This document shows, piece by piece, positions 23,434 through 28,044 of a stretch of DNA of 64,000 nt. Below the pieces are notes generated by a model. The model was given only the letters and a program-made list of their open reading frames with translations. It did not search any database and was not told where the DNA came from. Both the position numbers and the translations under genes were made by a program. Position 1 is the first letter of the stretch, and each line of letters opens with the position of its first letter. This DNA comes from Candidatus Poribacteria bacterium (lineage in GTDB: Bacteria; Poribacteria; WGA-4E; JAJDTR01), in the NCBI GenBank assembly GCA_965220415.1, contig OZ244829.1:2217209-2281208 (forward strand). Direction: 5' to 3'.

Positions 23434-23462
23434 TTGACAATCCTCTAAGCGTATGATACAAT
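23434..23462 (+). promoter_or_regulatory. Near-consensus sigma70 promoter (-35 TTGACA, 17-nt spacer, -10 TACAAT)
   Basis: TTGACA 23434-23439 and TACAAT 23457-23462 with an exact 17-nt spacer. It drives a small ORF whose AGGAGG RBS is at 23475-23480. Confidence 0.45.
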
Positions 23463-23488: not shown

Positions 23489-23686
23489 ATGGCATCCCGC
23501 AATACCTACAAGTATCATTTGAAACGAGGCGATAAAATCATTATTGCATCGCCAGGAAATCACTATACATTTGAGATTCAGATGTCTCGGTTGTTGCTGA
23601 GTTTCTCAAGAGTATTGCGTTTGATATTGGCGGCGGGGTTGAATCAAATTCCTGCCGCCTTTTTGCATTGTTACCGAGTAGTTTAA
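23489..23686 (+). CDS. Small hypothetical protein (65 aa) in a compact promoter-RBS-ORF-terminator unit
   Basis: ATG lies 8 nt after AGGAGG (MASRNTYKYHLKRGDKIIIASPGNHYTFEIQ...). An intrinsic terminator hairpin lies inside the annotated 3' end, so the true product may be shorter or this may be a leader/sRNA. Confidence 0.35.
   Translation: MASRNTYKYHLKRGDKIIIASPGNHYTFEIQMSRLLLSFSRVLRLILAAGLNQIPAAFLHCYRVV
23629..23665 (+). terminator. Rho-independent terminator hairpin (GGCGGCGGGG...CCTGCCGCC + TTTTTG)
   Basis: GC stem of 6-9 bp with a 12-nt loop, followed by a T5 run on the plus strand. Confidence 0.5.
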
Positions 23687-23865: not shown

Positions 23866-24279
23866 ATGAATACTACAAAAGAGGCGGAATTTGATTATCA
23901 AACTTATTTTAAAGAAAACAGGCCAGATCCAGCACGGATTAATCGCGGACCAAAGGCACGTCAAAAACGACGTGAGGCCGTGGTATGTAACATTCGCGGA
24001 CTTTCTCACTATGAAGACGGTCTGTATGACTGTGCTATTGAAGATTATACGAAAGCGATAGATGCCAATGCCGATTTCGCCGAAGGTTATAACAATCGCG
24101 CTGTTGCTTGGATACATTTGAGCGAATGGGACAAAGCCCGAGAAGATTTGAAGACCGCTAAAGAAAAGGGTGTAGACATCATCGTCGCATTTCATAACGA
24201 CTACGAAAAAGTCTCGGATTTCCAGCAGAAAACAGGAATACAGTTGCCGGAAGACATCGCCGCAATGCTGACAAACTAA
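23866..24279 (+). CDS. TPR-repeat protein (137 aa)
   Basis: Two to three TPR-like motifs (DYTKAIDANADFAEGYNNRAVAWIHLSEWDKAREDL). Lies immediately upstream of the SIR2-like gene on the same strand. Confidence 0.65.
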   Translation: MNTTKEAEFDYQTYFKENRPDPARINRGPKARQKRREAVVCNIRGLSHYEDGLYDCAIEDYTKAIDANADFAEGYNNRAVAWIHLSEWDKAREDLKTAKEKGVDIIVAFHNDYEKVSDFQQKTGIQLPEDIAAMLTN

Positions 24280-24483
24280 TCAATCGGTAAGTAGATTTCC
24301 TATTGTGGAGACACTGTCTGAGTCACGAATTAAGGGATTTCTACCGCACTCACTATCCGTTCGGACGGTCGGATTACGCGGATGACAGGGACAAGAGGCG
24401 ATTCTCACTGTACGCGGATTTGATCTTTGGCAATCGAAGATTCAGACGGTCATCAAAAAATTCAACATCATTAAAGCAAAAAC

Positions 24484-27400
24484 ATGAAAATTAAGAATAT
24501 TGACTTCCCCAAACCCCTGTTAGATGCCTTGCATGCAAATAAACTGGTGGTGTTCGCCGGGGCAGGAGTTTCAATGGGTGACCCTGCCCATCTACCAAAT
24601 TTCAAATCGTTAACCGATATGATCGCCCAACGTACTGGCAAAAACTTGCGCAAGGATGAAAAGTTCGAAGAATTCCTCGGAAGATTGCACGATGACGAAG
24701 TAAAGGTTCACGAAATTGCAGCCGGTGTACTTTCCCAAGAAAGTTTGCAAGCAACCAAACTACATAAGAATCTTTTACAGCTTTATCCCAACATCGGGCC
24801 AGTTCGCCTAGTGACCACCAATTTCGATCTCCTGTTTGAGCAGGCCGCAGAGGGAATGTTCGACAGTCTACCAGAGGTGTTTCGGGCACCTGCGTTACCC
24901 TTGGGGCGCCAGTTCAACGGCATTATTCATGTTCACGGTTCCGTCTCAAAACCCGGCCAGATGGTGCTTACAGATAAGGATTTCGGTCTCGCCTATCTGA
25001 CCGATGGATGGGCTCGACACTTCCTTGTTGAACTGTTCAGTAATTTTACAATCCTCTTTGTTGGCTATAGTCATGACGACACGATTATGAATTATCTGGC
25101 GCGTGCGCTTCCGGCCGGTTCAGAGGATCGGCGCTTCGTTTTAACCGGTTCAGAAGACAGTAAAAAGCCAGGCGATTGGCGTTTGCTCGGAATTCATCCC
25201 ATTACCTACCCACAGACTCACAAGGAAGACCATAGCAAACTTGAGACGGGTGTCCGCGGCCTCGCCAATCATGTCCGACGCAGTGTCGTTGATTGGCATC
25301 GCGAGATCACTGCAATTGCTGAAAACCCGCCTCCTCTAGCTGATGACGAGAAAATAGTGGGAACTATTGAGGAGGCGCTTGGAGATAAGACAAAGACTCA
25401 ATTCTTCACAAAAGCAGCGTCAAACCCAGATTGGATTGATTGGCTCGACGAGCACGGGTGCTTAAAGGCGCTGTTTGGTAGCGATTCGTTAAGAGACCAG
25501 GATATGGCTCTGTCTTGGTGGGTGGCAGATCGGTTTTTATACGACCATGCAAACAGAATTTTCCTTCTAATTAGCAAATACGATACGCGATTACATCCAA
25601 AGTTTTGGCACGATTTAGCTCGGAAGATTGGTAGGGATATGGAGGCTTCCCGAGATAAGGTAGTTCTATCTCGCTGGATTTCATTGCTGCTATCAACGGC
25701 GCCAAGCGACGGGGACAGCACCAATGGGGTGTACGTAGATACCGGCAATCTTCTTGATCAGATAGGCAAACGCTGTATTGCACACGGGATGTTAGAAGAT
25801 TTGTTGAGAATCTTCGATACCATGATGCAGAGTCGTTTATTAATAAGGGGTGGTTATCCGCTGCTCAGTGACGATGGAGAAGAGGAGAATCTCTTATTTG
25901 ACGCGAAATTGTCGCTAATCGGTAAATATGGCGGACTGAATAAGTTATGGGAAGGGGGACTGAGACCGAATTTATTTCAAGTAGCCGAGCCATTACTAGA
26001 ATCGGCTGTCAGACGGTTGGAAGAATGGTATCTTACATTACACACTTGGGGAAAGGCAAATCGCGAGTTGGAACCTGCTAGCATCCGGCGTTCCGCCATT
26101 GAACCTCACGAACAGGACAGGCATCCTCAACCGGTTGACGCGATAATAGATGTTGTTCGAGACTGCCTTGAGTCACTGGCATTGAACCAGCAAGACTCGG
26201 CGGCGCGGTGGTGTGATAAGCTCGTGCAGTCGGATGCACCATTGCTGCGCCGGCTGGCGGTACATGGACTATCCATACGCACCGACCTGTCACCGGACGA
26301 CAAAATTCAGTGGTTGCAAGAACATATAGACCTGCACGAATACGCTATTCACCACGAAATATTCCAGGCGGTGTACCAAGCATACCCCAAGATGAGTTCG
26401 GAACACCGAAAAACTCTGATTGAAGCCGTGAGGGCGTACCGTTGGCAGCACGAAGATTGTGAGGATGATAGGAAATTCACGTCACGAGTACATTTCGACT
26501 GGCTTCATTGGCTCCACAAATCAGATCCGACCTGTCAGACGGCTAAACAGGCTTTGAACGAGTTACAAGCGGAATACCCAGATTTCGAGCCAAAGAAATA
26601 TCCTGATCTGACATCTTGGATTGAATCAGGTTGGGGCGACCTACCGAACTCATGGACGTCTGAAGAACTCCTGTCAAGACCGACATCTTATTGGCTAGAC
26701 AAACTACTGTCGACTGAGGACTCAGAAAGAAATCGACCGAGATTCGGAATGCTAATTAATAGCATCACAGAAGCGACGGAACAGGACTTCGCTTGGGGTT
26801 TAAGTTTGGCTGATGAATTGGATGCCTCTGAAAAATGGGATTCAGAACTCTGGTACGCCTTGATTCGCGCTTGGTCGAAAATGGCGTTGAACGAAGATAA
26901 GCGCGCACAAGTGGTTTACTGGCTTGGCAGAACCGAACTGTATGCGAAACATTGTCGTGAAATTGCTGATGCGCTTTGCACGCTAGTGAAGAATGGCGGG
27001 CTGCCCTACTCCTTAAACCTACTCCATCAAGCCAACGAGATTGCTGCCACGTTATGGCGTAATCTTGATCGGACCCAATCGATCGAGGAGAAGGAGAACT
27101 GGCTAGACACTGCCATGAACCACCCAGCAGGGTGCCTTGCATACTTCTGGATGTCCAGTTTCTTCCTTTGGCGAGAGCAACAAGACCCTAAGCCTACAAC
27201 TTTCAGTGATGAGTATCTTAGGGCACTGTCAGACATTATGGTAGACCAGTCACTACCGGGGAGGCTGGCACGAACTGTTCTTGCCAGCCAATTGCACTTC
27301 CTGCTGACAGTAGATGAGGGCTGGACACGAGATAATGTGCTACCGCTATTTGAGCCTGAATGTGAAGATTTTCAAGCAGCATGGGACGGCTTTGCAAGGT

Positions 27401-28044
27401 GGGGAAATCTCAATCCTGCTGTCGCTGAAGCGATGGCAGGCCTATTCCTCAAGGCTGTTACTCGGATTAGCAACGATCTTCCCAATCAATGTGAGCCCTT
27501 CATTCGACATTATACTGATATGCTCGCATATTTTGCTGAAGACCCCCTTTGTGAATGGATTCCTAAGTTGTTTCAACATAGTAACCAAGAAACTAAGGAT
27601 TCCTTTGCATCGGCGGTGGGCAACCGTTTGCAATACTTAGCTGAAGCAGAACAACAGGACGTACTACGAAAATGGTGGATCTCTTGGCTCAAGCCCTTTT
27701 GGATGAATCGCTTACAAGGGATGTTCGCTAAACTGGAGCCTGGCGAGATTTCGCACATACTGGACTGGTTGCCACATTTGACACCCGTATTTCCGGAAGC
27801 TGTTGATTTAGCAATTCAGATGCCAAGGGGCCGGTTGCAACCTTGCTGGGTTTTAGACTACCTAAGAGAAAGTAATTTGTGGCAGAAACACCCCGAGTCA
27901 ATAGCGAAGTTGATTCTGTATCTTTGGGAATGCGAGTTCAGGTTTACTCGGCTTCTAGACCAAGAATTCATTGACTCGCTTCTTCAGGCGGACGTTTCAT
28001 TGGAACTTAAGAAGGAATTAGAGGACATCAAAATCCAACTCTAG
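24484..28044 (+). CDS. SIR2-like (SIR2_2/DHS-like NAD-binding) domain protein with ~900-aa alpha-helical C-terminal domain; DSR1/DSR2-like defence-associated sirtuin candidate
   Basis: N-terminal ~270 aa carry LVVFAGAGVS (Gly-rich NAD loop), TTNFDLLFEQA (conserved Asn, N113) and IIHVHGS (conserved His, H151), arranged as in prokaryotic SIR2_2 domains. The remainder is W/L-rich helical repeats with no other recognisable enzymatic motif. Confidence 0.8.
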   Translation: MKIKNIDFPKPLLDALHANKLVVFAGAGVSMGDPAHLPNFKSLTDMIAQRTGKNLRKDEKFEEFLGRLHDDEVKVHEIAAGVLSQESLQATKLHKNLLQLYPNIGPVRLVTTNFDLLFEQAAEGMFDSLPEVFRAPALPLGRQFNGIIHVHGSVSKPGQMVLTDKDFGLAYLTDGWARHFLVELFSNFTILFVGYSHDDTIMNYLARALPAGSEDRRFVLTGSEDSKKPGDWRLLGIHPITYPQTHKEDHSKLETGVRGLANHVRRSVVDWHREITAIAENPPPLADDEKIVGTIEEALGDKTKTQFFTKAASNPDWIDWLDEHGCLKALFGSDSLRDQDMALSWWVADRFLYDHANRIFLLISKYDTRLHPKFWHDLARKIGRDMEASRDKVVLSRWISLLLSTAPSDGDSTNGVYVDTGNLLDQIGKRCIAHGMLEDLLRIFDTMMQSRLLIRGGYPLLSDDGEEENLLFDAKLSLIGKYGGLNKLWEGGLRPNLFQVAEPLLESAVRRLEEWYLTLHTWGKANRELEPASIRRSAIEPHEQDRHPQPVDAIIDVVRDCLESLALNQQDSAARWCDKLVQSDAPLLRRLAVHGLSIRTDLSPDDKIQWLQEHIDLHEYAIHHEIFQAVYQAYPKMSSEHRKTLIEAVRAYRWQHEDCEDDRKFTSRVHFDWLHWLHKSDPTCQTAKQALNELQAEYPDFEPKKYPDLTSWIESGWGDLPNSWTSEELLSRPTSYWLDKLLSTEDSERNRPRFGMLINSITEATEQDFAWGLSLADELDASEKWDSELWYALIRAWSKMALNEDKRAQVVYWLGRTELYAKHCREIADALCTLVKNGGLPYSLNLLHQANEIAATLWRNLDRTQSIEEKENWLDTAMNHPAGCLAYFWMSSFFLWREQQDPKPTTFSDEYLRALSDIMVDQSLPGRLARTVLASQLHFLLTVDEGWTRDNVLPLFEPECEDFQAAWDGFARWGNLNPAVAEAMAGLFLKAVTRISNDLPNQCEPFIRHYTDMLAYFAEDPLCEWIPKLFQHSNQETKDSFASAVGNRLQYLAEAEQQDVLRKWWISWLKPFWMNRLQGMFAKLEPGEISHILDWLPHLTPVFPEAVDLAIQMPRGRLQPCWVLDYLRESNLWQKHPESIAKLILYLWECEFRFTRLLDQEFIDSLLQADVSLELKKELEDIKIQL

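Follow-up and report, generated by a model that had tools for sequence, protein, structure and literature searches.

A divergent DSR1-like SIR2 protein as a candidate single-gene anti-phage defence in a Poribacteria genome

The gene described here raises the question of whether a Poribacteria genome encodes, in a single polypeptide, a defence-associated sirtuin that depletes NAD+ upon phage infection, and if so, to which of the named systems it is most closely related, what its long C-terminal region might sense, and whether the genes just upstream take part. In the following, "the window" refers to the whole 64-kb stretch of DNA that was analyzed. The features that bear on these questions are collected in Table 1.

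Table 1 Features of the SIR2 gene and of the region upstream from it (positions in the window).
Feature	Coordinates	Strand	Basis or remark
Near-consensus promoter-like site, TTGACA-17-TACAAT with TG	23434-23462		11/12 match
65-aa ORF	23489-23686	same as SIR2 gene	AGGAGG Shine-Dalgarno
137-aa TPR protein gene	23866..24279	+	TPR_1 1.1e-8; 204 nt upstream of SIR2 gene
Weak sigma-70-like site in the 204-nt spacer, possible own promoter of SIR2 gene	24268..24297	+	9/12 match; low confidence
Complete gene, 1186-aa SIR2_2 + helical sensor protein (DSR1-like)	24484..28044	+	ORF list, ATG start
N-terminal SIR2 (SIR2_2) NADase domain, ~aa 1-265	24484..25278	+	
AGAGVS NAD-binding glycine loop, aa 25-30	24556..24573	+	
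Asn113 codon, putative catalytic Asn of TTNFD motif	24820..24822	+	Alignment
His151 codon, putative catalytic His, HG motif	24934..24936	+	Alignment
All-helical (HEAT/TPR-like) sensor region, ~aa 281-1186	25324..28041	+	
DUF4020-like segment, aa 1023-1149, within C-terminal lobe	27550..27930	+	Pfam PF13212

The gene and its SIR2 domain

The length of the ORF, together with the existence of thousands of full-length homologues, places a chance ORF far beyond what is plausible. The protein aligns end to end with its homologues, from Met1 to the C-terminus, a protein identical to it is present in public collections, although neither it nor its cluster has a recorded name or accession, and no second copy of the gene was seen within the window.

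The initial annotation had pointed to three blocks of the prokaryotic SIR2 fold and to an Asn113/His151 pair, all of which are present in the ORF. The LVVFAGAGVS, TTNFDLLFE and IIHVHGS motifs start at aa 21, 111 and 147, respectively, and the Asn-His spacing of 38 residues equals that of the catalytic pair N133/H171 of DSR2 (Garb et al.), as had been proposed. A Pfam search matched the domain to SIR2_2 (PF13289) with an E-value of 2.5e-22, above the gathering threshold. In a 61-sequence alignment that includes true Dsr1 proteins, residues G26, G28 and S30 are invariant. Invariant in alignment with true Dsr1 are also Asn113, whose counterparts are N127 in Dsr1 and the Asn in the TTNYD motif of ThsA, and His151, whose counterparts are H166 in Dsr1 and the His in the MHGDV motif of ThsA, unlike H149, whose invariance is limited to the closer family. 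These residues support the reading of the protein as a DSR-like defence sirtuin that consists of one polypeptide and has its N/H catalytic pair intact.

The SIR2 domain contains no cysteines and therefore lacks the Zn module of the classical deacylase sirtuins. A classical sirtuin deacylase (Sir2/CobB/SIRT) was accordingly rejected as a candidate, neither the Cys4 zinc-binding module nor a match to a deacylase model having been found. Both sequence and fold group the domain with anti-phage NADases.

The C-terminal region and its relationship to DSR1

As expected for the remaining approximately 900 residues, aa 271-1186 are rich in leucine and tryptophan (13.5% and 4.4%) and almost entirely helical in the predicted structure. 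The final AlphaFold model was built from the 61-sequence alignment (mean pLDDT 88.6, pTM 0.71) and replaced an earlier one from 27 close homologues, in which the SIR2 domain was poor (pLDDT 73.5, pTM 0.44). The all-helical region is interrupted in the model by a conserved beta-hairpin insertion at aa 450-478.

A structural resemblance to DSR2 had been anticipated and was found in part: the best PDB matches in a Foldseek search were DSR2 chains (E-value 1.8e-8), and the SIR2-then-solenoid order is common to the two, but the global TM was only about 0.2. One could take these matches, along with the identical N-H spacing, as signs that the protein is a member of the DSR2 family itself, i.e. a tail-tube-sensing tetrameric NADase. 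This reading was rejected and we give it next to no credence, given the low TM, a profile match confined to the N-terminal ~115 residues of the SIR2 domain, and the absence of homology to the MID/CTD sensor of DSR2. A solved structure of a Dsr1 or Avs7 sensor that could serve for comparison was not found.

The C-terminal region had been thought to belong to no known family and to represent a new sensor, and this view does not hold. A Pfam search gave a borderline match to DUF4020 (PF13212) with an E-value of 1.9e-4 and 21.7 bits against a cut-off of 22.7, and nearly all close homologues score above threshold for this domain. Among them are full-length homologues that are 53-58% identical to the 1186-aa protein and have the SIR2_2 (PF13289) plus DUF4020 (PF13212) architecture. 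The SIR2_2+DUF4020 family comprises 5093 representatives at E≤1e-3, with 1485 of them at E≤1e-30. When the family profile was aligned with that of DSR1 (NCBIfam NF041818) by hhalign, the alignment extended over 1073 columns with a probability of 100% and an E-value of 5.2e-61. By BLASTP the C-terminus also matched the Dsr1 proteins of Nitrosococcus (1e-13) and E. coli (4e-7), and the homology in the sensor includes the beta-hairpin insertion and the invariant residues R590, E625 and W967. Dsr1 is represented by NF041818, by the PADLOC Dsr1 model and by proteins such as WP_053264524.1 (E. coli), WP_013028139.1 (Nitrosococcus) and WP_029488749.1 (EcDsr1).

The homology is nevertheless distant. 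Compared with true Dsr1, the overall identity is about 22%, and in the sensor it is only 5-25% per 50-residue block. The score against NF041818 was 262 bits (best stretch aa 7-361) compared to an equivalog cut-off of 1400 and to the 1674 bits, over the full length, obtained for E. coli Dsr1. Of the checks against family and defence-system models suggested by the initial annotation, the one for SIR2_2 gave a clear match, while the PADLOC Dsr1 model was matched only in part, with its best stretch at aa 7-344 of a 1248-position model. Since the score reaches only 262 bits and the coverage by Dsr1 models only aa 7-361, functional equivalence with Dsr1 is not guaranteed.

From these comparisons the 1186-aa protein is a full-length yet distant relative of DSR1 that falls under the curated DSR1 cut-offs, and the SIR2_2+DUF4020 proteins form a divergent subfamily, in a clade of its own, within the DSR1 (defence-associated sirtuin 1) superfamily. 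The closest named relative is DSR1 and not DSR2. The reading as a single-gene DSR-like defence sirtuin is upheld by the SIR2_2 match, the conserved N/H pair and the homology to DSR1. No paper mentioning DUF4020 turned up among the searchable papers, and our literature search found no experimental work on any member of the SIR2_2+DUF4020 subfamily.

Upstream genes, neighbourhood and distribution

A 137-aa TPR gene some 200 bp upstream from the SIR2 gene, preceded by a compact small transcription unit, had been described as part of a possible two- to three-gene module. The arrangement itself was confirmed: the promoter-like site and the 65-aa ORF with its Shine-Dalgarno sequence (Table 1) are followed by a stable hairpin with a U-run (dG -19.9, z -3.3), and the TPR and SIR2 genes lie on the same strand. 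No terminator-like site was seen between these two genes, so that co-transcription is possible, and the three ORFs have a lower GC3 (0.41-0.49) than most genes of the window (0.52-0.61). All this would be compatible with a TPR protein that, perhaps together with the product of the 65-aa ORF, serves the SIR2 protein as adaptor, regulator or antitoxin. The comparison with related loci speaks strongly against such a module, however. Searching 80 related loci by tblastn with the TPR protein and both small ORFs revealed no counterpart, apart from a generic TPR repeat match in one locus, and when 891 neighbouring ORFs were clustered, no family was present in more than 7 of the 80 loci. True Dsr1 loci are likewise single-gene. 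We therefore rejected the TPR gene and the small ORFs as partners and consider a module highly improbable. As the only recurrent neighbours are restriction-modification genes, the SIR2 gene is a single-gene system with no obligatory partner.

Restriction-modification, helicase or integrase genes were found next to 21 of the 80 related genes, a raw count taken without a background control. In the window a type II restriction-modification pair 5.5 kb from the SIR2 gene is the sole defence-type neighbour, and the flanks encode a surface protein, an aminotransferase, a melibiase and MoaD/MoaE; the window itself is no clear defence island. Scans of the window for Rfam families and tRNAs found nothing. 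The closest relatives come from MAGs of Latescibacteria, Poribacteria and Dehalococcoidia and from other phyla, and this spread over several phyla implies horizontal transfer. Across loci the gene family is mobile, patchy and pseudogenising. A related gene in Rhodococcus is annotated merely as "SIR2 family protein", and in a phage collection the only match, Dsr1-like and limited to the N-terminus, was in an Stx2c prophage. A literature search on DSR in sponge symbionts returned no relevant match.

The metabolic genes immediately around the gene, and the concentration of its relatives in lineages with record titles of the kind usual for animal-associated microbiomes, could also be taken to indicate a housekeeping or regulatory sirtuin (a deacylase or ADP-ribosyltransferase) with a large scaffold and no connection to defence, for example a eukaryote-like repeat protein in host-symbiont interaction; HEAT-like solenoids are, after all, generic interaction scaffolds. 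Such a role is very hard to reconcile with the missing deacylase Zn module, the grouping of the domain with anti-phage NADases, the full-length homology to the experimentally validated DSR1, and the recurrent restriction-modification neighbours and mobile behaviour of the family, and we judge it very unlikely.

Putative mechanism and comparison with known systems

Taken as a whole, the protein is probably a stand-alone anti-phage protein of the DSR1 superfamily that acts through sensor-triggered NAD+ depletion. The helical C-terminal region would serve as the receptor for a phage protein produced during infection, and binding of this ligand would lift an autoinhibition, probably through oligomerisation. 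The SIR2 domain with Asn113 and His151 could then hydrolyse NAD+ to ADP-ribose and nicotinamide, and the loss of NAD+ would starve the phage and possibly also the cell. Both phage-triggered NAD+ depletion and protection against phage are known for DSR1 (Garb et al.), and from the literature on relatives we hold NADase activity to be likely with good confidence, and expect a defence phenotype just as strongly.

The nature of the trigger is a more tentative matter. According to a 2026 preprint (Lee et al., PMC12803255), EcDsr1 and the homologous sensor of Avs7 respond to an HK97-fold major capsid protein, and by analogy the same could apply here, although we put this at somewhat below even chances. 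It is almost as conceivable, if rather doubtful, that the DUF4020 subfamily shares its architecture and NADase output with DSR1 but has a sensor for a component of the phage or other invader that is not the major capsid protein. Because identity to true Dsr1 is only 5-20% over much of the sensor, another ligand may be involved; the subfamily forms a clade apart, its sensor lies outside the coverage of the Dsr1 HMMs, and in DSR2 the related solenoid sensors recognise the tail tube instead. Against a re-targeted sensor stand the whole-length homology to Dsr1, down to the hairpin and the three invariant residues mentioned above, and the report that sensors of the Avs7/Dsr1 type recognise the overall shape of capsid proteins even when the homologues have diverged widely (Lee et al., PMC12803255). 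A more far-reaching version, which we regard as unlikely, is that the clade is a sister group of DSR1 with a function of its own, its sensor re-targeted to a phage component other than the major capsid protein, and that the gene is a habitat-specific defence passed between unrelated phyla within a single host-associated (sponge-type) microbiome, often hitch-hiking with Type ISP/IIG restriction enzymes.

Although divergent, the gene is a rather typical DSR1 relative within an established defence family and changes little about how such systems are understood to work. What it points to is a very large clade of full-length DSR1 relatives, with thousands of sequences that score too low for the curated Dsr1 models, many of them from uncultured Latescibacteria, Poribacteria and Dehalococcoidia. 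Since these genes escape the curated models, NAD+-depleting defence is probably under-counted in environmental and symbiont genomes. Should some other phage protein indeed be the ligand of the divergent sensor, the clade would add to the repertoire known for the Avs7/Dsr1 sensor superfamily and would provide a useful natural series for studying how solenoid receptors are retargeted.

Among the named systems, DSR1 shares with the 1186-aa protein a single polypeptide of ~1200 aa, an N-terminal SIR2_2 domain with GAGxS, TTNFD and HG motifs, a long helical sensor that is collinear over ~1070 columns including the C-terminal lobe, and a stand-alone gene that is often located beside restriction-modification systems or integrases. 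It differs in that the 1186-aa protein is ~80 aa shorter and in that the DUF4020 match of its family is absent from true Dsr1 proteins. In DSR2 from Bacillus subtilis (PDB 8wy8, 8wyb, 8k9a), too, an alpha-solenoid sensor for a phage protein follows the N-terminal SIR2 NADase, but DSR2 recognises the tail tube and has DSAD1 as its inhibitor. Avs7 is a STAND NTPase whose bilobed TPR sensor recognises the major capsid protein of phages; this sensor is homologous to that of Dsr1, and the ZL19 major capsid protein triggers both (Lee et al. 2026 preprint, PMC12803255), with 9,097 Avs7-sensor proteins listed in that preprint. By transitivity through Dsr1 the sensor described here should belong to the same superfamily, whereas the STAND NTPase is missing, with no P-loop family among the Pfam, NCBIfam and PADLOC matches, and the effector is SIR2 instead of the Cap4 nuclease of Avs7. 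The match to Thoeris ThsA is confined to the SIR2 part, and membership in Thoeris was rejected, as neither the protein nor its neighbours contain a SLOG or TIR family and there is no ThsB-like partner gene. ThsA, KomC and Avs5 differ from the 1186-aa protein in that their activation depends on a SLOG-bound signal, on partner proteins or on a STAND module.

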